NCBI GenBank assembly: GCA_963666115.2
Contig: CAXXET010000006.1
Coordinates: 480,001 to 544,000, forward strand
Origin: Dehalococcoidia bacterium
GTDB lineage: Bacteria; Chloroflexota; Dehalococcoidia; UBA6926
DNA: 64,000 bases
Direction: 5' to 3'
Of this stretch, positions 16,498-26,537 are shown in pieces; the stretch's first letter is position 1, and every line of letters begins with the position of its first letter. The notes under the pieces were generated by a model. That model ran no database searches. It saw only the letters and a list, made by a program, of their open reading frames with translations, and was not told the DNA's origin. The position numbers and the translations under genes are program-made.

Positions 16498-17463
16498 CTA
16501 GTCGTCGTCCGCCGTTGGCTCATCGTCCAGGATGATGAAGTCGTCCGCGCCGCGCGCCCGCAGCGAGTCAAGCAGACTTTCCCCGATTTCCTGCGGGGAC
16601 GTCGATACACCGGTGGTCAGGGATTCCCGCAGCAGAATCGTTCCGTCCGGCGTGGCGGCCATCGCTTCAACGGAGAGCGCGCTGCCGCCAACTGTGGCAT
16701 AGCAGGCAAGGGGCGTGCGGCAGAACCCTCCCACCGCTCTCAGGAAAGCGCGTTCGGCTTCGGCGGCGAGCCTGTCGTTCCGGTCTTCGATGAGAGCCGC
16801 GACGGCGCATGCCTCGTCATTGCTTTCAAGACATTCGATGCCGAGCGCGCCCTGGCCGACTGCGGGGAGCATGATGTCCGGCTCAAGGTATTCCGTGATA
16901 GTGTCGTCCATTCCGAGACGTTGTAGCCCGACGGCGGCCAGCACGGCGGCCTCCGCCTCGATCTCCCGCCCCTCGCCGGTCACCTTGCGGACGCGCGTAT
17001 CCACGTTGCCGCGCAGCAGCACGATGTCAAGATCGGGCCGCGTCGCGAGAACCTGCGCGGCGCGGCGGATGCTGCCCGTGCCCACGCGCGCGCCGGGGGG
17101 GAGTTCGTTCAGCGTTTGGCCGTCTCGTGAGACGAGAACATCGCGGGGATCGTTGCGCGGCATGACGGCGGCCAGCGTGTGGCCGGGTGGGAGGCGCGTG
17201 GGCAGGTCCTTGAGGCTGTGGACAGCGAAGTCGATCTCGCCGTTGGCAAGCGCAATCTGTATCTCCTTGACGAACACGCCCTGCCCGAGGTCGGGGATGG
17301 GAGCGGTGGGGCGTCGTTCAGCCGCCGTCGTGATGCCCACAACCTCAAACGCAAGCTCCGGCCGCTGCGCCCGGACGGCCTGCATGAACATGTCCGTCTG
17401 GATCATCGCCAGGCGACTCGTTCGCGTGCCGACGCGGAGAGGGCGGTTTTGAGGAGAAGCCAT
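16498..17463 (-). CDS. hemC: Porphobilinogen deaminase
   Basis: VGTRTSRLAMIQ, AVHSLKDLP, GTGSIRR, RGNVDTR and PAVGQGALG motifs. Confidence 0.95.
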   Translation of the reverse strand: MASPQNRPLRVGTRTSRLAMIQTDMFMQAVRAQRPELAFEVVGITTAAERRPTAPIPDLGQGVFVKEIQIALANGEIDFAVHSLKDLPTRLPPGHTLAAVMPRNDPRDVLVSRDGQTLNELPPGARVGTGSIRRAAQVLATRPDLDIVLLRGNVDTRVRKVTGEGREIEAEAAVLAAVGLQRLGMDDTITEYLEPDIMLPAVGQGALGIECLESNDEACAVAALIEDRNDRLAAEAERAFLRAVGGFCRTPLACYATVGGSALSVEAMAATPDGTILLRESLTTGVSTSPQEIGESLLDSLRARGADDFIILDDEPTADDD

Positions 17464-18962
17464 TAGTCGTTCGCCGCCCACGCGCGGGCTGCGTCTACGA
17501 TGCCGTTCGCGGTGTGTTCAGCGGCCTCAACCGTGACGGTTAGCCCGACCTCCTCCGCGCCGCGTGACGTCGTTGGGCCGGCGGAGATGAACGGAATGCC
17601 GTCCAGGTGTGAGGCGTCCGCGCCAAGCGCCGTGACCAGGTTGCGGGCCGTCGACGGGCTGGTGAGGATAATCCCGTCGATGCCGCGCTCCATGGCCTCG
17701 CGGGCGCGTTCCGCGAGAGCCGGGCCGGCCATCGTCCGGTACACGACGACGGGATGAGGCTCAAGCCCGCGTTCGCGCAGGGCGTCGGGCAGGGCATCGT
17801 CCGCGAGGTTGCCGCGCGGCAGGAGAATGGCGTCCCCCGGTTGAGCGGCGGCTGCGATGGCGTCCGCCAATCCAACGCTGTTGTAGCGTTCCGGCATGGT
17901 GTCGTGCCTCAGCCCGTGCCGGTTCAACGCGGCGGCGGTGGCGGGGCCGATGGCGGCAAGCCGCGCGCCGGACAGACTGCGCCCATCGCGCCCGGTTGCC
18001 AGTAGGCGCCGCATGAAATAATCGACGCCGTTGACGCTGGTGAACGCGATGAAGTGGAAGCGCGGCGCGTCATCGAGCGCCGCATCCATGTCCGACTGCT
18101 CCTCCGCCTCTGCGAAAGCGACTGCGGGGACGTGGACGACTTCCGCGCCCGCGTCGTCCAGCATCGTGATCAGCTCCGCCGCCCGCGCCTCTCCCCGCAG
18201 AACCATGAGGCGGCGGCCAAACAGGGGCCTCTTCTCCAGCCACGCGATGCGGTCGCGGAGGCTGACGACGTGGCCGCACACGAGCAGCGCGGGCGCCTGG
18301 GCGCCGATGTCCGCGGCCTTGCCCGCAATCGTTCCCAGGGTGGCGACGGTCGTGCGCTGCTGTGACGTTGTGGCGCGTTCGATGAGCGCGGCGGGAATAT
18401 CGTCCGCCCAGCCGTCCGCTTTGAGAGATTCGACAACGGCGGCGAGAGTGCGGACGCCCATGAGGACGATGGCCGTTTCGCGCCCCGCCCCCGTGTCCGG
18501 CGGCTCTCCCGCCGCGCCCTGCCCGGTGAGGATGCGGACGGCGGAGGCATGGTGGCGGTCTGTTGGCGGGATGCCGGCGTAGGCGGGGCCGGCAAGCGCG
18601 GACGTGACGCCGGGGACGACGTCAAAGTCGACGCCCGCCTCCGCAAGGGCTGTGGCCTCCTCGCCGCCGCGTCCGAAGAGGAACGGATCGCCTCCCTTGA
18701 GGCGGACGACGCGCTTCCCGTTGCGGGCGCGGTCTACAAGGGTCTGGTTGATCGTTTGTTGGAGGCTGTGGCCGGAGGATGGATGCTTGCCGACGTTGAT
18801 CAGTTCAGCGCCGGAGCGCGCTTCGGCCAGCAACGAAGGGTTGACGAGCCTGTCATAGACGATGACGTCCGCGCGGCGGAGCAGACGCGCGCCGCGCACG
18901 GTGATCAGCCCCGGATCGCCCGGCCCCGCGCCCACCAGGTGGACGATGCCGCTCTCAGCCAC
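17463..18962 (-). CDS. cobA: Uroporphyrinogen-III C-methyltransferase fused to uroporphyrinogen-III synthase
   Basis: LVGAGPGDPGLIT and RLKGGDPFLFGRGGEE; C-terminal HemD domain (FTSVNGV, AIGPATA, TSPST). Confidence 0.93.
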   Translation of the reverse strand: MAESGIVHLVGAGPGDPGLITVRGARLLRRADVIVYDRLVNPSLLAEARSGAELINVGKHPSSGHSLQQTINQTLVDRARNGKRVVRLKGGDPFLFGRGGEEATALAEAGVDFDVVPGVTSALAGPAYAGIPPTDRHHASAVRILTGQGAAGEPPDTGAGRETAIVLMGVRTLAAVVESLKADGWADDIPAALIERATTSQQRTTVATLGTIAGKAADIGAQAPALLVCGHVVSLRDRIAWLEKRPLFGRRLMVLRGEARAAELITMLDDAGAEVVHVPAVAFAEAEEQSDMDAALDDAPRFHFIAFTSVNGVDYFMRRLLATGRDGRSLSGARLAAIGPATAAALNRHGLRHDTMPERYNSVGLADAIAAAAQPGDAILLPRGNLADDALPDALRERGLEPHPVVVYRTMAGPALAERAREAMERGIDGIILTSPSTARNLVTALGADASHLDGIPFISAGPTTSRGAEEVGLTVTVEAAEHTANGIVDAARAWAAND

Positions 18963-19596
18963 TGCTCCCGTCCGTCAGCAGGGCCACAAGACGATCCCGC
19001 AGACCGGCCTCATCGCCGGCGGTGATCATGGCGCGCGTCTCGTGGTCATTCAGCGCGTTCTGCCAGCGGCCTGACGGCGGCCTTTTGCCATCCCGCCGTA
19101 ATCCCTCTCGCACACCAGCGAGAACGTCCAACAACATGCCATATTCCGCAGGCAATGCCTCATCAATCTCCCGGCGCAGGAACGACGCCATCGCGGGGCT
19201 GCGGCCATTTGTTGAGATGGCAACCGTCGCGTCGCCGCGCTTGACGAGGGCGGGGTAGATCCATGTGCAGAGGTCGGTGATGTCCACGACGTTGAGGAGG
19301 CATTTTTCACGCTCCGCCTCCTCGCGGATGTGCTCGCTGAGCGGGCGGTCGTGGGTTGTGGCTGAGATGGCCAGGAACGCGCCCGCAAGATCGCCGGCCT
19401 CGTAGCCGCGGGAGCGCAGTGTAATCTCGCCGCGTTCGGCCATTTCGGTGAATCGGGGACGCTCCCGGGGGCTAATGACGGTAACGACAGCGCCCGCCTC
19501 GACGAGCGCGCCCGCCTTCGTCTGCGCCTCATCATCGTCGCCGATGACGACGCAATTCCTGCCGCGCAGGTCAAGGTAGACGGGAAAGTAACCCAT
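18955..19596 (-). CDS. Precorrin-2 dehydrogenase/sirohydrochlorin ferrochelatase (SirC/CysG N-terminal type)
   Basis: YFPVYLDL, LLNVVD and AISTNGRSPA motifs. Confidence 0.88.
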   Translation of the reverse strand: MGYFPVYLDLRGRNCVVIGDDDEAQTKAGALVEAGAVVTVISPRERPRFTEMAERGEITLRSRGYEAGDLAGAFLAISATTHDRPLSEHIREEAEREKCLLNVVDITDLCTWIYPALVKRGDATVAISTNGRSPAMASFLRREIDEALPAEYGMLLDVLAGVREGLRRDGKRPPSGRWQNALNDHETRAMITAGDEAGLRDRLVALLTDGSSG

Positions 19597-19630
19597 GCCG
19601 CGCCCTCGTGTAGCAGGCCGGGGCCCCTGC

Positions 19631-20488
19631 CTACGACCCTGTGGCGGCGGCCACGGACTCTTGGGCGGGCTGGGAAGCAAAATGGTCGGCCAGCGCAAGC
19701 ACCAGCGGGCCCATCTTGGGATTGACCGGCTCCACGCGCGGCTCCACGCCATGCTCGCGCAGCGCCCGCGTGCAGACGGGGCCGACAGACGCGACGATGA
19801 TTCCCGATGACAGCGCCTCACGAAGCTCGTCGGCAAGACCAACCTGCTCTGCGATGCGGAAGAGGTTGTGCGCCTGCGACTGCGTGGTCAGCATCACCGC
19901 GTCCACGTCCTGCGCGAGCATAAGCGCGATCGCGTCGACGACGGGCCGCGTATCCTCCGGCAGTTGCCAGGAGTACAGCGATACTTCAAGGACGTCCGCG
20001 CCCAGTGCCTGGAGCTCCCCGCGCAGCCACGCGTTCACCTCGCCATAGTGTTGGAGGGAGACGCGCTTGCCGCTCAGATCGATGTCAGATTCCTTGAGCG
20101 CCGCCAGCAGGTCCTCGGACGTGTATGGCGACGGCGAGACGAGCGCTATCGGCACATTGAGCGGCTTGAGGACCGCCACGGGCTTCGGGCCGCGGCAGAT
20201 GACGGTCGTTTCGCGCAAGGCGCCCAGGAACTCATCCTTGCGGCCAAGTTGATCCGCTGCGTTGATGAGGGCGCGCGCGCCAACTCCCGTGAGGAAGACC
20301 GCTGCCTGAATCGTGTAGGCGCAGATGCCGTCGATAACATCACGCACATCCTGCTGCATGGGGAGCGCCGCCTCGCGCAGAGCAGGGGCGCTGATGGCCT
20401 CTCCGCCGTGGCGGGCCACAAGGTTGCCGAGTTCAGAGGGCATTCGCGCCTCAAGGACCACGATTCGCCGTCCCTTAAGGTCCGCCAC
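19631..20488 (-). CDS. hemD: Stand-alone uroporphyrinogen-III synthase-family protein
   Basis: FLTGVG, CRGPKP, LYSW and SVGPVC motifs. Confidence 0.8.
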   Translation of the reverse strand: MADLKGRRIVVLEARMPSELGNLVARHGGEAISAPALREAALPMQQDVRDVIDGICAYTIQAAVFLTGVGARALINAADQLGRKDEFLGALRETTVICRGPKPVAVLKPLNVPIALVSPSPYTSEDLLAALKESDIDLSGKRVSLQHYGEVNAWLRGELQALGADVLEVSLYSWQLPEDTRPVVDAIALMLAQDVDAVMLTTQSQAHNLFRIAEQVGLADELREALSSGIIVASVGPVCTRALREHGVEPRVEPVNPKMGPLVLALADHFASQPAQESVAAATGS

Positions 20489-20543
20489 GTCCGCCCCTCT
20501 TTCTCAGTCGATTCCGATCACTCAGTGGTTTGCGTGGTTGACT

Positions 20544-22346
20544 CTACGTCGCGCACTCGCCCTCGCCGCGCTCCATGACGTACAGCACGGACTTGTCGTA
20601 GTCGATGTAGTGGTCGAGGTTCGCCTTGTTGAGCGGCCCGACGTCCTGGTACTCCTTGATGATGTCCTCGAACGGCTCACGTCCCAGCCGGTGGGCGAAG
20701 TCCTTGAACAACTCGCCGTCCTCGCGGTTGTCCTTGTAGTAGCGGAGGAGATGGAACACGGCCTCCGTAACCTTCTTGGCGGGAATCTTGCCGCGCGGGC
20801 GAACGCCGAAGCGCATGTCCGCGTTCTCATGGCTGCCGCCCAGGAAGACCTCATAGGCGGGAATCTGTCCGCCGCCGGGCCCCTTGATGAACGCGCCGTG
20901 GAAGCCGATGTCGGACACGTGGTGGCGTCCGCAGCCGTTGGGGCATCCGCTCATCTTGATGTGCATTTGGTTGATGAGGGGGTCCTCCAGCAGGCCCGTG
21001 TGGCCGTTCGGATTGCGGACGGCGTCCGCGACGGCCTTGTTGAGGCCCATGGAGGACGTAATGCCGAGCTTGCAGCTGTCCGTGCCGGGGCAGGACGTCA
21101 CGTCCGTGATCCGGTTCATGCCGCCCTCGTGCAGGTCAAGCGCGACAAGCTCTTGGTAAACGTCGTAGAGGTAGGCGTTGGGCGTCCAGCGGAGCATGAG
21201 GTTCTGCTCCGGCGTGGTGCGGAGGCGGTAGCTGGCGTACTTGCGGGAGATCTCCGCGGTGCCGTAGAACTGCTCCGGTGAGAGGTCGCCGCGCGTGATG
21301 GTGACGCCGACGTGGCTGTAGCCCTCTGCCTCCTGCGGGATCACGTTCGTCTTTTTCCACGCCTGGAACGCCGCGTCGTCCTCGCCGCGCGGCTCGACGC
21401 CGGTTGGCAGGGCGGGGATGTCGGCTTCCTCGTCATCGTGGAAGAGCAGGTAGTCCTTGTCCTCGTAGTCTTGCGCCCAGTCCTGCTGCAACTCTTCTTC
21501 CACCTGCTCGCGGAATGAGTCGATGCCCTCGGTGTGAATGAGAACCTTGATGCGCGCCTTCATCTTGTTGCGGCGCAGCCACGCGGTGCGGTTGAACACG
21601 CGCAGCATGGCTTCGGACACGCGCAGGAACTCATCGACGGGCACGAACTCATAGATCGTCTCCGCGATCAGCGGCTGGATGGACGTGCCGCCGCCGACGG
21701 TGATCTTGAAGCCCTTGACTTCCTTGCCGTCGATCTCGCGGACACGGGCGACGAAGCCGATGTCATGCATCCCGACGGACGCGCAGTCATTGTCGTTGCA
21801 GGAGAACGCGGGCTTGACCTTGCGCGGCATGTGGAACGTGAAATCGCGCCGCACGAAATTGCGGGCAAACGCGCCCATGTAGGGCAGGATGTCAAATGCC
21901 TGGTCGGGGCAGATGCCGGCCATGGGGCAGCAGGTGATGTTGCGGACGGAGTTGCCGCACGCCTCCTTGGTGCTGAGGCCGACGCTCTGCAGCAAGTGCA
22001 TGGCCAGCGCGGCGTCCTCCAGCTTGAGGTGGTGGAGTTGGACGTTCTCGCGCGTCGTGACGTGTCCCTTGCGGAGCGGCGCCCACTTCTCGGCGATCTG
22101 GCCGATGGCGTCCCATTGGTCGGCGTGGACAAGCCCGCCGGGGATTTTGATGCGGAACATCTGGGAATCCGGCTGCCGTTGGCCGTAGACGCCGAGCCGG
22201 AGCCGGAAGGACATGAACTCGTCCTCCGGGATTTCTCCCGCGCGAAACTCCGTGACCTTGCCTTCGTAGTCGGCGATCTCCTCATCCAGGTATTGGATGA
22301 TGGAGGGTCGGGCGGAACGTTGTCCCGTCTTGGTTGTCGTAACCAC
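20544..22346 (-). CDS. sir: Siroheme/[4Fe-4S] sulfite reductase, ferredoxin-type
   Basis: HVTTRENVQ, CGNSVRN, MPRKVK, SCPGTDSCKLG and SGCPNGC motifs; strong SD GGAGGGAGG before GTG. Confidence 0.9.
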   Translation of the reverse strand: MVTTTKTGQRSARPSIIQYLDEEIADYEGKVTEFRAGEIPEDEFMSFRLRLGVYGQRQPDSQMFRIKIPGGLVHADQWDAIGQIAEKWAPLRKGHVTTRENVQLHHLKLEDAALAMHLLQSVGLSTKEACGNSVRNITCCPMAGICPDQAFDILPYMGAFARNFVRRDFTFHMPRKVKPAFSCNDNDCASVGMHDIGFVARVREIDGKEVKGFKITVGGGTSIQPLIAETIYEFVPVDEFLRVSEAMLRVFNRTAWLRRNKMKARIKVLIHTEGIDSFREQVEEELQQDWAQDYEDKDYLLFHDDEEADIPALPTGVEPRGEDDAAFQAWKKTNVIPQEAEGYSHVGVTITRGDLSPEQFYGTAEISRKYASYRLRTTPEQNLMLRWTPNAYLYDVYQELVALDLHEGGMNRITDVTSCPGTDSCKLGITSSMGLNKAVADAVRNPNGHTGLLEDPLINQMHIKMSGCPNGCGRHHVSDIGFHGAFIKGPGGGQIPAYEVFLGGSHENADMRFGVRPRGKIPAKKVTEAVFHLLRYYKDNREDGELFKDFAHRLGREPFEDIIKEYQDVGPLNKANLDHYIDYDKSVLYVMERGEGECAT

Positions 22347-22401
22347 GTTATCCTCCCTCCGGATAGTACCTACAGGGTACGCCGCCAGCACTACAATCTC
22401 A

Positions 22402-22472
22402 AATCACCCGTCATTCCCGCAATCACCCGTCATTCCCGCAATCGCCCGTCATTCCCGCGAAAGCGGGAATCT
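22402..22472 (+). repeat. CGTC-type REP-like palindrome with triplicated 19-bp left arm
   Basis: AATC(A/G)CCCGTCATTCCCGC x3 then GAAAGCGGGAATCT; hairpin ATTCCCGC-GAAA-GCGGGAAT. Confidence 0.85.
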
Positions 22473-22490
22473 AGGACTCCATTTCGCAGC

Positions 22491-23702
22491 CTAACCCCTC
22501 GCGGCCTCGATGAGAATCTTCGCCACCTCGGGCCGCGTGAACTCCTTCGGAGGAACCTCGCCGCGCGCGAGCATGTCCCGCACCTGCGTGCCGCTCAGGA
22601 AAATCTTCTCTTCAGGCCCGCACGGGCACGTCTTCATGGAGGCCATGCCGTCGCACCGCTTGCAGTAGAAGGAGTGGTCGAAGTAGAGCGGCGTGATGCC
22701 GAGATCGGCGGAGGGGATGCTGCGGAGCAGGTCCTGCGCATCGTACGTGCCGTAGTAGTTCCCGACGCCCGCGTGGTCGCGGCCCACGATGAAATGCGTG
22801 CAGCCGTAGTTCTTGCGAACGAGGGCGTGGAAAACGGCCTCGCGCGGGCCCGCGTACCGCATGGCGGCGGGCAGCACGGTCAGATGCACCCGATCCTCCG
22901 GGAAGTAACCCTCTATCAGGACTTCGTAGCACCGCATGCGGACGTCCGCGGGGATGTCATCCGGCTTGGTCTCACCGACCAATGGGTGGAGGAGCAGGCC
23001 GTCGACGATCTCCAGCGCCGCCTTTTGGATGTACTCGTGCGCGCGGTGGACGGGGTTGCGCGTCTGGAATCCCACGACGGTGCGCCAGTGCCGCTCCGCG
23101 AACGCCGCGCGCGTCTGCGCCGGGTCCTCGCGGTAGGGGCGGAGTTCGGCTTCCAGGTTCTCGCGCTCGATCACCGTGACCGAGCCTCCGATGAGCATGT
23201 CATGTTGACTGTAGACGGATGCGACGCCGGGATGCGCCTCCTCCGTCGTCCTGAAGACGTTCTGCGCCTCAACTTCCTTGTCGTACTCGTAAACCTCATC
23301 AACGGACAGGACGGCGAGGTGCCTGCCGGTGTTGTCCACCAGCACGACCTCCTGCCCCTGGTTGAGCCCGCGCGCGGTGTCCGCGGGGGCGGAGAGGGTG
23401 ATGGGCAGGCTCCAGAGCGTGCCGTCCGAGAGACGCATCTCATGCACCGTGCGCTCGTAGTCCGCCTTGCCCATGAAACCCGTCAGCGGGCTCATTGCGC
23501 CGACGGCGATGAGGTCAAGGTCTGCCGTTTCGCGCGCGCTCAGGGTGATGTGGGTCAACTCCGGCGCGCGCTCGCGTATTTCGGTTGCCTGGTCCGGGGA
23601 CGCGAACCGGTCGACCAGTGTCCCGCCGTGCGGGGCGATGGTCTCCTCGATGTCCGCGTGGGGCGAGGTCGTGTGGCGTGATGGCTGCGTAGACGTTGTC
23701 AT
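22491..23702 (-). CDS. sat: Sulfate adenylyltransferase
   Basis: PHGGTLV, SPLTGFM, FQTRNPVHRAHEY, MRYAGPREA and HFIVGRDHAG motifs. Confidence 0.96.
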   Translation of the reverse strand: MTTSTQPSRHTTSPHADIEETIAPHGGTLVDRFASPDQATEIRERAPELTHITLSARETADLDLIAVGAMSPLTGFMGKADYERTVHEMRLSDGTLWSLPITLSAPADTARGLNQGQEVVLVDNTGRHLAVLSVDEVYEYDKEVEAQNVFRTTEEAHPGVASVYSQHDMLIGGSVTVIERENLEAELRPYREDPAQTRAAFAERHWRTVVGFQTRNPVHRAHEYIQKAALEIVDGLLLHPLVGETKPDDIPADVRMRCYEVLIEGYFPEDRVHLTVLPAAMRYAGPREAVFHALVRKNYGCTHFIVGRDHAGVGNYYGTYDAQDLLRSIPSADLGITPLYFDHSFYCKRCDGMASMKTCPCGPEEKIFLSGTQVRDMLARGEVPPKEFTRPEVAKILIEAARG

Positions 23703-23705
23703 GAT

Positions 23706-24278
23706 CTAGGTTGCCGCCCCCGCCAGCTCTTTGCCCGCGCCGGAGGGGATGATGCCCCGCTGCTCCAGCGCGTCCAGCACCTTGCCGAGGCTCTCTTCGA
23801 CCTCTTCCTGCTCCGTGTCGACGAGAACCTCGGGGGTCAGCGGCTCCTCGTAGGGATCGGAAACGCCGGTGAAGTTCTGGATCTCGCCCTTGAGCGCCTT
23901 TTCGTAGAGGCCCTTGACGTCGCGCCTGACAAGCTCATCGAGCGAGGCGTGAACGTGGACTTCAATGAAATCGCCGATCTGCTCGCGCACCTCATCGCGC
24001 ACTTCGCGGTAGGGGGAGATGGCGGACACGATACTGACGACGCCGTTGCGGGTCAGCAGGTCGCTGACGAACCCGATGCGGCGGATGTTGGTGTCACGGT
24101 CTTCCTTGCTGAATCCGAGCCCCTTGCTGAGGTTCGTGCGAACGACGTCGCCGTCCAGCAGTTCGGACTTGACGCCATGGTCGCGCAGAACGGCCAAAAG
24201 GCGCTCCGCGATGGTGCTCTTGCCGGCGCCCGAAAGGCCGGTGAACCAAACTGTCACTCCCTGGTGGTTGGTGGTCAC
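23706..24278 (-). CDS. cysC: Adenylyl-sulfate kinase
   Basis: [26 protein letters not shown] and FTGVSDPYE motifs; SD GAGGAGG before GTG. Confidence 0.95.
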
Positions 24279-24301
24279 TCTCCAATTCCTCCTCTTATTC
24301 C

Positions 24302-25057
24302 TTACGCCGTCGTTGAAACAACCTTGCCCGTCTCCGGGTCGATGTGAATGCCGCATTCGACCTTGTCCTCGAAATCGGACCAGCGGCCCGCCCGCGGGTC
24401 CTCCCCCGGCGCAACCGCCCGCGTGCAATTGGTGCAGCCGATGCTGGGATAGCCGCGGTCGTGCAGGTCGTTGTACGGGATGTTGTTCTCGCGGATGTAG
24501 TTCCAAACATCGTCCTCGGTCCAGTTGGCGAGCGGGTTGACCTTGATGAGGTCGAACTTGGAGTCCCACGCGACGATGGCGACGTCCTTGCGCGTATCGC
24601 CCTGGTCGCGGCGGAGTCCGGCGATCCATGCCTTCTGGCCGGCGAGCGCGCGTTGGTTCGGCTCAACCTTGCGGATTTCGCAGCAGAGATCGGGATCGAC
24701 TTTCCACAACTCCGGCCCGTGCAGTTCGGCCTGCCGCGCAACGGACACGTCCGTCTTGAACCCGATCGGGTGGATGCCGTAGCGGCGGGCGGTCTTGTCC
24801 TTGAGGTTGTGCGTCTCCGGGAACAGGAAGTCCGTGTCCACGTAGAACACGGGCACGTCCGGGTTGATGTTCATGGCCATGTCGAGCAGGACCATGCCGG
24901 ACACGCCGCCGAAGCTGCAGGCGAGCGTGATGTCCGGGAAGAAGTTTTCGATTGCCCAGCGGACGATCTCTCGCGGGTGGGCGTTCTCAAGCTGCGCGCT
25001 GACTTCCGCCAGCCGCTCCTCCGTCCATTCCGTCCGAATCGCTTCCAAGGTTGCCAT
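24302..25057 (-). CDS. cysH: APS/PAPS reductase (Fe-S type with CC and CxxC)
   Basis: [36 protein letters not shown] and ECGIH motifs. Confidence 0.93.
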
Positions 25058-25120
25058 GTGCTTTGGTTCCCCCTCGATACCCCGTGTGCCTGCGAGTTGT
25101 GTTCGTTCTGTCGTTCAGAG

Positions 25121-25155
25121 ATAAGAAAACCGCCCCGTTGCTTGGTGGGGCGGTT
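25121..25155 (-). terminator. Intrinsic terminator inside the cys operon leader (attenuator)
   Basis: Minus strand AACCGCCCC-accaagcaac-GGGGCGGTT followed by TTCTTAT, about 64 nt upstream of the cysH ATG. Confidence 0.75.
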
Positions 25156-25214
25156 GATGCGCTTATGACTGCGTCGTGGAGTCTGCGCGCTCGTGTCCGT
25201 GAGGCCTGCTGCGT

Positions 25215-25325
25215 CTAGCGCGCGGCCTCCCGCCCCGGGACGGGCATGTAACACGAGCAGGTCACTGCGGCGCTCAGCGCCACCGCGACTACTGAAGGAC
25301 TGTGTGTATGGGCGTAGGTATTCAT
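25215..25325 (-). CDS. Putative Cys/Met leader peptide (36 aa), not in ORF track
   Basis: MNTYAHTHSPSVVAVALSAAVTCSCYMPVPGREAAR*, between the promoter and the leader terminator. Confidence 0.6.
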   Translation of the reverse strand: MNTYAHTHSPSVVAVALSAAVTCSCYMPVPGREAAR

Positions 25326-25349
25326 CGTTCGCACGATTTGCTTATGGGA

Positions 25350-25378
25350 ACTATAAGCGGATGGCAATTGAGTGTCAA
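25350..25378 (-). promoter_or_regulatory. Sigma70 promoter of the cys/siroheme operon
   Basis: TTGACA-N17-TATAGT on minus strand. Confidence 0.8.
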
Positions 25379-25410
25379 TAGGCTTGTGACGCCTGTCACG
25401 AACCCCACCC

Positions 25411-26118
25411 CTACATATCCGGCTCGCTCACGTTCGCCCGCATGGCCTCCGCCTCCTCCAGGAGCCGCGCAAACAGCGGCCAGATGTCCTCATCGGTTGG
25501 GTCCATTGTTGAGATGGACATCACGCGGTGCAGCACCCCGCTGCTCACCCCCACAGTCTCGGCCCCGCCGGCGTCCGGCAGCGCGACGCCCAGCGCCCGC
25601 GCCACAAGCTCCGCCTGAGTAAGCCCCTTCTCGTCGTTGGGGCAGATCACCATTGCGCTGCCCTCGTGGAGGAGGGTTGTTTCGGCCTCGGTGCGAGACA
25701 GGGTTACCTCGATGAGGCGTTGGGGGCGGGCGAGGAGTTTCTCGGCGTAGTCCCAGGCTTTCTCGGTGTAGGGGGTGGTTTTGTCGAGCAGGAGGCAGGG
25801 TTCGCCGGTTTGGGCGGGGTCGTCCAGGCTCCATTCGCCGTCGGAGTCGAGCGGCCGGGTGCGGATGCCGTCGTCGCCGCCGAAGATCAGCAACGCGTGC
25901 CCCTCGCCGGAGTCCTCGACGATGGCGGCGTAGGCGGGGCAGGGGCCGTCCTCGCTCCAGCCGGTGACGTCAACCATGGCGAGTTCGCCGCGGATGCCCG
26001 GCGCCTCGACGCTGACGACCTCCTTCGGTTCCTCAACCACGCTGAACACGCGGTGCAGCGAGTAGTCGCAGTTATTCCCCGCCTCTACCTCAACCTCAAT
26101 AAACCTGGCCTTCGCCAC
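25411..26118 (-). CDS. Hypothetical acidic protein
   Basis: 235-aa ORF with SD AAGGAG before GTG; no recognised motif. Confidence 0.7.
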   Translation of the reverse strand: MAKARFIEVEVEAGNNCDYSLHRVFSVVEEPKEVVSVEAPGIRGELAMVDVTGWSEDGPCPAYAAIVEDSGEGHALLIFGGDDGIRTRPLDSDGEWSLDDPAQTGEPCLLLDKTTPYTEKAWDYAEKLLARPQRLIEVTLSRTEAETTLLHEGSAMVICPNDEKGLTQAELVARALGVALPDAGGAETVGVSSGVLHRVMSISTMDPTDEDIWPLFARLLEEAEAMRANVSEPDM

Positions 26119-26174: not shown

Positions 26175-26537
26175 TGGTGGAGGCGGGGGGGAGTTGAACC
26201 CCCCGTCCAAAGGCGGCTCCGGATGCGGCGCTACAGGCTTAGTCGGTCTTTGGTTTCTCGCCGCTCGCGGCCCCGGCCGACAGGAATCGCGAGCAGCCAG
26301 CCGGCGATGGTCTTTCGCTGCGCGTCACCGGCTGACGCGCAGCGGCGCCCCGCTAAAATGTCGCTCCAAAACCGTCCGCAGGGGTAACGACCCGGAACGT
26401 CGCTGCCTAGTGTTTAGGCTGCGAGTGCGAGCTGATTGTCGTTGCCAGCTACTCTTTGTGCCGCGGGATTAACGAGGTCACGGCGCCTCGGCCTGCTCAC
26501 GCACCCTCGCAGACCCCTGTCGAATCCGCGCGCCCCC
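26175..26537 (-). ncRNA. ssrA: tmRNA, tag (A)GNDNQLALAA
   Basis: 5' GGGGGCGCGCGGATTCGACAGGGG; 3' GGTTCAACTCCCCCCCGCCTCCACCA; tag ORF GGC AAC GAC AAT CAG CTC GCA CTC GCA GCC TAA; adjacent to smpB. Confidence 0.95.

Follow-up and report, generated by a model that had tools for sequence, protein, structure and literature searches.

The leader-peptide attenuators of the his, leu, thr, pheA and ilv operons are classical, and rare codons at the sensing positions are a known trait of such leaders, that of leu being one which uses them. In Bacillus subtilis, cysH has an S-box-like leader. Here we describe a putative leader-peptide attenuator in front of the sulfate assimilation and siroheme operon of a Dehalococcoidia bacterium (Chloroflexota). 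The element lies in a 64,000-nucleotide stretch of contig CAXXET010000006.1 (positions 480,001 to 544,000; assembly GCA_963666115.2), which we refer to as the window and by whose own numbering all positions are given.

Classical trp leader-peptide attenuation is described in passages of de Groot et al. 2014 (PMC4007540), which also contain the prediction of a leaderless Cys-containing leader peptide upstream of Deinococcus deserti cysS. Passages of Seliverstov et al. 2005 (PMC1262725) predict Cys-rich leader peptides upstream of actinobacterial cys operons and describe terminators as missing there; the S box is cited in the same text. According to passages of Canestrari et al. 2020 (bioRxiv 10.1101/834739), leaderless small open reading frames (ORFs) with polycysteine tracts attenuate translation in mycobacteria by masking the Shine-Dalgarno (SD) sequence, and those of Brewer et al. 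2021 (PMC8632094) present uORFC-8-2, a Cys-Cys upstream ORF and terminator predicted ahead of cysS in Rhodobacterales. As far as these passages go, the prior cysteine-biosynthesis cases that we found are of two kinds, actinobacterial translational leaders without terminators and predicted attenuators on cysS. Therefore, a complete promoter-leader-antiterminator-terminator unit on a sulfate assimilation/siroheme operon would fill a gap. We found no description of a leader-peptide attenuator on sulfate assimilation genes, or in Chloroflexota, in full-text searches, which did not extend to subscription journals and supplements.

The leader region upstream of cysH

One scan of the GTDB species genomes with the CysH protein gave 79 loci, the closest of which are from Dehalococcoidia metagenome-assembled genomes (MAGs). 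Fifteen of these loci (L001-L014 and L033), with a CysH 76-96% identical to that of the window, make up together with the window the clade of 16 sequences to which the counts below refer. The leader and the operon behind it are laid out in the window as follows.

25350..25378, minus strand: sigma-70-type promoter TTGACA-17-TATAGT, with the -35 hexamer at 25378-25373, a spacer of 17 nucleotides (nt) and the -10 hexamer at 25355-25350
25215..25325, minus strand: leader ORF of 36 codons plus TAG, MNTYAHTHSPSVVAVALSAAVTCSCYMPVPGREAAR; ATG at 25325-25323, stop codon TAG at 25217-25215
25251..25259, minus strand: regulatory codons TGC-TCG-TGT (Cys23-Ser24-Cys25), TGC at 25259-25257 and TGT at 25253-25251; Cys invariant in 16/16
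25245..25247, minus strand: ATG of Met27, directly after the Cys cluster; possible second sensing codon
25230..25236, minus strand: G-box GGGGCGG (region 2, 5′ strand of the predicted antiterminator); GGGGCG invariant in the clade
25147..25153, minus strand: C-box CCGCCCC (region 3) within the terminator 5′ arm; exact complement of the G-box
25121..25155, minus strand: predicted intrinsic terminator with 5′ arm AACCGCCCC, a 10-nt loop, 3′ arm GGGGCGGTT and tract TTTTCTTAT
24302..25075, minus strand: cysH (25057-24302) with its SD sequence GAGGGGG (25069-25075); PAPS_reduct, E = 4.8e-52; first gene of the operon
16498..24317, minus strand: rest of the operon by Pfam, namely cysC, sat, sir, a HEM4-like gene, a sirC-like gene, a cobA-hemD fusion and hemC

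On the strength of sequence comparison and folding models, we think that this leader probably works by ribosome-mediated (leader-peptide) attenuation of transcription, in which charged tRNA-Cys is sensed. An earlier note on this DNA, made from the letters of the stretch, had put forward a cysteine-sensing attenuator of the trp type at this place. The promoter, the 36-codon ORF, its Cys and Met codons and the hairpin with its U-tract all lie at the minus-strand coordinates which that note gave them, and the exact complementarity of GGGGCGG (25236-25230) to CCGCCCC (25153-25147) can be read off the sequence. Its operon content of cysH, cysC, sat, sir and siroheme genes agrees with the Pfam matches, while the comparison with cysH upstream regions of relatives supports the trp-type reading, of which the mechanism is still a prediction.

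The whole unit can be aligned in the 15 related loci: promoter, ORF, the Cys cluster TGC-TCG-TGT (with up to two additional TGT), GGGGCG, hairpins and terminator. The terminator arms, GGGGCG and GCGCCGC..TGAC.TGCTC.TG make up its invariant core. Relative to the window, the leader is 0.61-0.88 identical, the spacer between terminator and cysH 0.28-0.74 and the third codon positions of cysH 0.59-0.76. The feature, as judged from these alignments, is conserved and real. A covariance model built from the 16 leaders (R1) and run against the window and the 79 loci recovered only its 16 training sequences, at 114-186 bits. The next sense-strand match scored 12.4 bits (L015:2725-2868); R1 found no second copy of the leader in the 64-kb window, and it did not detect the leaders of the L019 type described below. 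Moreover, a profile of the leader peptides gave three matches among 1.84 billion protein cluster representatives, two of them leader ORFs of the clade and the third a protein of 5820 amino acids (aa) for which no matched stretch was given and which we set aside. Because gene callers rarely predict such ORFs, this search says little about how widespread the peptide is.

The leader ORF is kept in 16/16 clade members, at 34-39 codons, with an invariant ATG and its frame preserved. Three insertion or deletion (indel) events, of 6, 3 and 3 nt, separate the sequences between ATG and G-box, and indels of 1, 2 and 4 nt occur beyond the stop codon. Five columns of the ORF (S11, A14, A20, T22 and S24) vary only synonymously, and variation by codon position is 29/32/44. 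Taken together, the invariant ATG, the triplet indels and the synonymous-only columns make the leader ORF look coding.

Cys accounts for 2 of the 36 leader codons, against 1.1% of codons in 10 genes of the window. The second Cys codon is TGT in 16/16, and all three codons inserted at the cluster are likewise TGT, which is a rare codon (1 of the 38 Cys codons in the same 10 genes). Tyr26 is replaced by Cys in L005 and L014; the variants of the cluster are CSC, CSCC and CSCCC, with 2-4 Cys codons across the clade. A cluster of this kind is unremarkable by itself, given that the 64-kb window contains 12 short ORFs with at least three Cys in seven codons and this leader has two. Its weight comes from being conserved and well placed. 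In 16/16, 14 or 17 nt lie between the last Cys codon and the start of the G-box.

The promoter matches at 11/12 positions and is the top one of six promoter-like sites in 10 kb, where shuffled sequences had 1.0 ± 1.1 sites. TTGACA is kept in 16/16 clade members, followed 17-18 nt downstream by a TATAGT-like -10 box, and the leader ATG comes 22-25 nt after that box (24 nt in the window). The promoter scan of the window found no promoter-like site between the terminator and cysH. Behind cysH, the Pfam families in operon order are APS_kinase, ATP-sulfurylase with PUA_2, NIR_SIR, HEM4, NAD_binding_7 with Sirohm_synth_M, TP_methylase with HEM4, and Porphobil_deam. By pathway logic, the sulfide required for cysteine is the output of the controlled genes. 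The operon has a stand-alone HEM4 gene (uroporphyrinogen-III synthase-like; 19631-20488, minus strand) besides the HEM4 domain fused to a methyltransferase (17463-18962).

One clade member, L014, is recorded as Candidatus Latescibacterota. It has a Dehalococcoidia-type leader with the richest Cys cluster of the clade (CSCCC), and its CysH is 76% identical to that of the window. This placement could be due to horizontal transfer of the operon together with its attenuator, or to a mis-assigned bin.

RNA structures, ribosome positions and the upstream region

The stem of the predicted terminator spans 25155-25128 (9 base pairs (bp), GC-rich) and is followed by the tract UUUUCUUAU, with the end of TTTTCTTAT at 25121. 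Its hairpin has a folding energy of -17.2 kcal/mol (z = -4.49), which 0/200 shuffles reach, and the helix (helix 8) is paired in 93.8% of cells across the 16 sequences. The terminator scan did not list this hairpin because the loop of 10 nt exceeds the limit of 8 in that scan. The G-box is identical to the core of the terminator 3′ arm (region 4), and no other stretch from the first Cys codon to the terminator pairs as well with the terminator 5′ arm (equalled in 1/500 shuffles). The antiterminator helix that G-box and C-box would form is paired in 96.4% of cells across the 16 leaders. Five further structural elements were considered.

25261..25289, minus strand: hairpin H1 (GTCGC-GGTGGCGC / GCGCCGC-AGTGAC), within the ORF; 2 nt separate its end from the first Cys codon
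25232..25245, minus strand: small hairpin GCCC-GUCCCG-GGGC of the RNAalifold consensus; candidate anti-antiterminator (region 1:2) which holds part of the G-box
25201..25229, minus strand: stop-codon hairpin GAGGCC...GGCCTC, with TAG in the loop
25189..25198, minus strand: GGACACGAGC, complement of the Cys-codon region GCTCGTGTT; possible long-range anti-antiterminator stem P1
25159..25188, minus strand: hairpin GCGC...GCGC with a variable inner stem; helix 6, paired in 93.8% of cells

In the RNAalifold consensus of the 16 leaders, H1 is followed by four more elements: the GCCC:GGGC hairpin, the hairpin at the stop codon, the one with GCGC, and the terminator. Folding of the whole leader gives -92 kcal/mol (z = -2.8), a value that 0/200 shuffles equal, and 80.1% of alignment cells pair in the consensus structure, compared with 33-49% when partners are slid, a control that flatters since the structure was taken from the window sequence. 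H1 may serve as an RNA polymerase pause hairpin; its helix (helix 1) is paired in 87.5% of cells and its core GGCGC/GCGCC is invariant. The GCCC:GGGC helix (helix 4) is paired in 93.8% of cells and shows no covariation, and its 5′ strand falls within the footprint of a ribosome stalled at Cys25. Placed directly 3′ of the Cys codons, this hairpin is likely the region 1:2 element, a refinement of the earlier reading of the locus. Compensatory changes are limited to the stop-codon hairpin, where four pairs of helix 5 have them (for example GAGGCTGTT/AACAGCCTC in L006), and the inner GCGC stem, where three pairs of helix 7 are changed on both sides.

From this layout we infer leader translation, ribosome stalling and a choice between termination and read-through. 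Transcription would start a few bases past TATAGT, and the 36-codon leader would be translated. With Cys-tRNA plentiful, the ribosome would pass Cys23-Ser-Cys25 and the G-box (codons 30-32) to reach the stop codon, which lies 19 nt past the start of the G-box. The G-box would then be covered or folded back onto GCCC, the C-box would pair with the terminator 3′ arm, and RNA polymerase would halt at the U-tract, about 65 nt before cysH. With Cys-tRNA scarce, the ribosome would stall with a Cys codon in the A site, the rare UGU being expected to be the most effective, and its front edge would reach over GCCC and stop short of the G-box, which begins 17 nt downstream. Being free, the G-box would pair with the C-box once the latter is made, the terminator would be blocked, and polymerase would read through into cysH-cysC-sat-sir and the siroheme genes.

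Ribosome positions were modelled by equilibrium folding of transcripts that end before the terminator 3′ arm, with a footprint that we assumed to reach from -15 to +12 of the A site. Such shortened transcripts were used because full-length folds with ribosome masks mostly kept the terminator wherever the ribosome was placed. With the ribosome on the last Cys codon, the predicted probability (P) of the antiterminator is at least 0.84 in 16/16 sequences, and with the ribosome on the first Cys codon it is at least 0.68 in 13/16. A ribosome over the G-box brings the modelled P to 0, and one at the stop codon to at most 0.10 in 12/16. The codon-by-codon profiles, which cover 8/16 sequences, put the Cys cluster at, or no more than two codons from, the last A-site position that permits the antiterminator. 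For the full-length RNA the terminator state lies at -85.7 and the antiterminator state at -80.2 kcal/mol. The 5.5 kcal/mol by which the terminator state is lower is consistent with a switch that is decided kinetically.

A number of points weigh against attenuation as just set out, and several concern the leader ORF. There is no SD sequence before the leader ATG in any clade member, and in the window only a weak purine tract, GAACG, precedes it, so that the caveat of the earlier note (no clear SD) was well placed; cysH, unlike the leader ORF, has its GAGGGGG. The AU of the leader AUG falls within a small predicted hairpin. The window leader has just two Cys codons, which are not adjacent, and the N-terminal peptide T-H-S-P-S is conserved beyond what a pure codon counter needs.

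Others concern the pairings. The antiterminator is short, at 7 bp, with 6 bp in L006 and L012, where the seventh pair is lost, and 8 bp in L014; the candidate GCCC:GGGC anti-antiterminator is weak, at only 4-5 bp. The pairs changed on both sides number 7, a count that 103/500 shuffles reach. Stem P1 is seen in the minimum free energy (MFE) folds of most clade members, and we set it aside as a mere possibility, its duplex energy being at shuffle level (10 or fewer of 200 dinucleotide shuffles matched it in only 2/16 sequences). In the model, P is close to 0 in L008, L009 and L014 when the stall is at the first Cys codon, and a ribosome at the stop codon fails to block the antiterminator in L005, L013, L014 and L033 (P = 0.53-0.99). 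Transcripts free of ribosomes form the antiterminator in 13/16 under equilibrium, which explains the off state poorly; for that state one would have to look to the 4-5-bp hairpin, to the ribosome as it translates, or to kinetics. The modelled probabilities carry the ribosome footprint as our own assumption.

The comparison of relatives that the earlier note had called for speaks in favour of its reading. Cys codons, frame, G-box and terminator are kept in 16/16 aligned cysH upstream regions; G-box/C-box covariation is absent within the clade, where both strands are invariant and the test is for that reason uninformative. Among the alternative folds, the antiterminator is predicted for a last-Cys stall in 16/16, but also without a ribosome in the 13/16 just given.

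A search against Rfam (4227 families, amino-acid leaders included) gave no match at the gathering score in the window, nor at the leaders of L013-L016 and L019. At E ≤ 10 the only matches were STnc450 on the terminator hairpin (14.5 bits against a threshold of 37) and CcsR1 on the other strand (13.5 against 65.3), and no S-adenosylmethionine (SAM) or T-box model matched the leader even at that level. We therefore reject a known riboswitch, T-box or leader family. A riboswitch or protein-binding RNA outside these families could still drive the terminator directly in response to a sulfur metabolite or a regulator, the ORF then being incidental to a GC-rich structured RNA. Such an RNA would account for the high degree of structure noted above, the several conserved hairpins and the long stretches that are invariant even at wobble positions, as well as for a leader ATG without SD and a model antiterminator that needs no ribosome; furthermore, a 36-codon open frame is not rare in GC-rich DNA. 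It would not account for an ATG that is invariant or for indels that are all triplets from there to the G-box and of 1, 2 and 4 nt past the stop codon, and the Rfam search, SAM classes included, speaks against it. Moreover, lineages whose leader RNA cannot be aligned with that of the window still have a short ORF with a run of Cys ahead of a copy of the terminator 3′ arm, and the use of the rare UGU has no obvious rationale at the level of RNA alone. We regard this explanation as quite unlikely and keep to ribosome-mediated attenuation.

Around the start of the leader, a 5′ untranslated region (UTR) hairpin AUCGU-GCGA-ACGAU is predicted at 25321-25336 (minus strand), and this is the one that takes in the AU of the AUG. 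Similar hairpins of differing sequence are present at the leader 5′ UTR of several relatives, as judged by eye. The hairpin might tune translation of the leader. Upstream of the promoter lies one further feature.

25385..25400, minus strand: palindrome CGTGA-N6-TCACA, a candidate transcription-factor site with its end 6 nt upstream of the -35 hexamer

In 14/16 clade members, all but L006 and L014, the core GTGA-N6-TCAC is found 6-7 nt from the -35 hexamer (7 nt in the window). The palindrome occurs once in the window, a count no higher than expected by chance. It resembles what we take to be the consensus of a CRP/FNR-type operator. Its sequence and position suggest control by a transcription factor as a second layer on top of attenuation. 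Directly upstream of the leader promoter is a 235-aa ORF (25411-26118, minus strand), which matches no family of Pfam or NCBIfam and has a syntenic counterpart in relatives. This ORF is preceded by a transfer-messenger RNA (tmRNA) gene (26175-26537, minus strand; tag GNDNQLALAA), and a tmRNA lies upstream in L013 too.

Leader types in other Dehalococcoidia

Leaders were counted in the 28 closest loci (L001-L027 and L033), the remaining 51 (L028-L032 and L034-L079) being from other phyla. A leader is present in 23/28, and none was seen in L017, L018, L023, L024 and L027 as far as these were inspected. The leaders of distant Dehalococcoidia cannot be aligned with that of the window, have 3-7 Cys codons and sometimes occur twice in an operon. 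All types have a common layout in which the Cys codons are succeeded by a G-rich copy of the terminator 3′ arm and then by the terminator. In 5/5 leader types the best partner of the terminator 5′ arm lies just after the Cys codons, with shuffles equalling it in 1, 52, 1, 1 and 18 of 500.

The locus L015:2640-3110 has two leader ORFs in tandem, with six and seven Cys codons (one is MRSNWTPTAVGRSSGSCSCSCCCCTTRSSGGGS, the other ends in ...ATSCACCCACCCTPTLGEGDSGA). Behind each comes a hairpin with a T-rich tract, and both stand ahead of a TauE/SafE-family gene and cysH. Two leaders in one operon are also found in the L019 group of six loci. The upstream one (L019:1800-1975; MSTRICTCSCMK) has 12 codons, is nearly leaderless and stands before sir in 5/6 loci (L019, L020, L021, L025 and L026), and its stop codon overlaps the G-rich strand. 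The internal one (L019:3763-3957; also in L022), with 40-41 codons of which 5-6 are Cys, lies between sir and cysH. Its ATG overlaps the last codons of sir, the GGAGAGG before it lies in the sir coding sequence, and a terminator stands between it and cysH-cysC-sat. In the untranslated fold, for which the figures come from L019, L020 and L021 only (3/6 loci), the internal leader has its Cys tract paired to the G-rich strand, which is the textbook 1:2 arrangement. Lastly, L016 has TNCSCC in a nearly leaderless ORF; the ATGs of L016 and of the L019-type upstream leader come 8 and 10 nt after the -10 box.

These leaders bear on the question of what a stalled ribosome would do, and at which codons. 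Stalling in the leader ORF might act on translation, through unmasking of a downstream ribosome-binding site, or through Rho-dependent termination, or it might occur at Met or Ser codons instead of or besides Cys; we hold this family of explanations to be unlikely. Mycobacterial Cys-sORF control is translational in the passages of Canestrari et al., and the start of the L019 internal leader within the end of sir, behind a GGAGAGG that belongs to sir, suggests coupling between genes. Every leader type has, on the other hand, a strong conserved hairpin with a U-tract between leader and cysH. In the window the cysH SD sequence lies about 45 nt past the hairpin and is unpaired with the leader in the folds run, none of which was aimed at that pairing.

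As for the codons, Met comes after the Cys cluster in 15/16 members of the clade and, for the L019 type, in all of the 11 leaders seen (6/6 internal and 5/5 upstream), and a Ser codon is always found between the Cys codons. Met is absent at this place in L014, L015 and L016, and only Cys codons multiply in relatives, up to seven. In the ribosome model, moreover, Met27 in the A site falls at the edge of the permissive zone, with P = 0.71 in the window and 0.0-0.17 in L006, L012 and L013. Met27 as a sensing codon is suggestive only, and we retain transcription attenuation at Cys codons as the preferred reading.

The Cys-rich leaders also raise the question of whether the peptide itself is the product. 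It could be a functional small Cys peptide, either a metal- or redox-active micropeptide or the precursor of a peptide made by the ribosome and modified after translation (RiPP), with the hairpin as its terminator or as a constitutive partial terminator. T-H-S-P-S and AAVTCSC are conserved with synonymous-only columns, two such predicted proteins occur among the 1.84 billion cluster representatives, and the Cys/Ser/Thr-rich leaders L015:2693-2791 and L019:3763-3885 weakly match TOMM precursor families (E = 0.068 and 0.0084). These matches, at 13.1 and 15.9 bits, lie far under the cut-offs of 35 and 33 and look compositional. No modification enzymes are among the Pfam-identified neighbours, although the whole window was not screened for YcaO. 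The peptides of different leader types have little in common besides the run of Cys, and the ORF is always found between a promoter or gene end and a sulfate assimilation gene, with no promoter-like site past the terminator in the window. Moreover, a peptide product would leave the relation between G-box and C-box unexplained. We consider a functional peptide highly improbable as the explanation of this locus. Its RiPP-precursor version we rejected, because the window peptide has no match, those of relatives are below threshold and the neighbours are sulfate assimilation genes.

A broader reading, which we offer as possible but doubtful, combines attenuation with several of the observations above. 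The leaders would belong to an old, Dehalococcoidia-wide 'sulfur ribulon' that senses Cys (through the rare UGU) and Met (through AUG) by way of a core Thr-Cys-Ser/Thr-Cys-(Tyr)-Met. Copies in tandem or within an operon, such as those of L015 and the L019 group, would allow graded control in several steps, and the T-H-S-P-S peptide or the attenuated transcript of about 200 nt would have a second function, be it modulation of stalling by the nascent chain or action in trans. A precedent for the latter comes from Sinorhizobium, where trpL peptide and RNA are reported to act in trans (PMC7298713; bioRxiv 10.1101/606483).

Two other observations were made at these loci. An AsnC/Lrp-family regulator gene lies just upstream in the L019-type locus. 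Six loci of Actinomycetota (L047, L048, L051, L056, L058 and L059) have a conserved small ORF with CPFC...C..C (…AVPFYCPFCGEQ…) about 100-250 nt upstream of cysH, which by its sequence looks like a zinc-ribbon protein and not a Cys-codon leader.

Comparison with known attenuators and cysteine leaders

The unit is conserved across an uncultured class of Chloroflexota, sponge-associated and marine MAGs included, and if it works as predicted, these organisms would gauge their sulfur status through the charging of tRNA-Cys. Its sequence signature could serve to annotate sulfur regulation in MAGs, and it would offer a compact cysteine-responsive part for synthetic biology. The understanding of attenuation itself would be unchanged, this being an ordinary type of switch in a new pathway and phylum.

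With the S-box (SAM-I) and T-box leaders of Firmicutes the window leader has in common that a leader RNA upstream of a cysH-type operon would choose between terminator and antiterminator. Those leaders differ in that the RNA itself senses SAM or uncharged tRNA, with no translated ORF.

The cysteine leaders of other phyla were compared as well. In the actinobacterial leaders, as the cited passages describe them, stalling at Cys codons of a short upstream ORF likewise controls cysteine and sulfur operons, two Cys codons can suffice and several loci may share the signal. Those leaders have no terminator in these descriptions and act on translation by unmasking the SD sequence, whereas a conserved hairpin with a U-tract follows the leader here. 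Unlike the leaderless mycobacterial sORFs, the window ORF has its ATG 24 nt past the -10 box, going by promoter geometry, although L016 and the L019-type upstream leader are nearly leaderless. The uORFC-8-2 of Rhodobacterales and the D. deserti cysS leader, compared by their descriptions in the passages cited, are likewise predicted to attenuate transcription, and they combine two Cys codons with a terminator stem and a U-run. By the same descriptions they control a tRNA synthetase gene, belong to other phyla and have shorter ORFs and simpler structures.

The leader can further be set beside the classical attenuators. As in these, a promoter, a short ORF with codons for the end product, alternative hairpins and an intrinsic terminator precede the first gene; the strand competing for the terminator 5′ arm has the regulatory codons just upstream of it, and rare codons occupy the sensing positions. 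Unlike them, the predicted signal is cysteine, the operon is one for sulfate assimilation and siroheme, the host belongs to Chloroflexota and the leader ORF has no SD sequence. Moreover, the long-range antiterminator of 7 bp would close a multiloop with two conserved hairpins, and region 1:2 is very small. Judged by its sequence-level features, the leader is probably an attenuator that would work like those of the trp type, and probably not a member of the mycobacterial leaderless or translational class.

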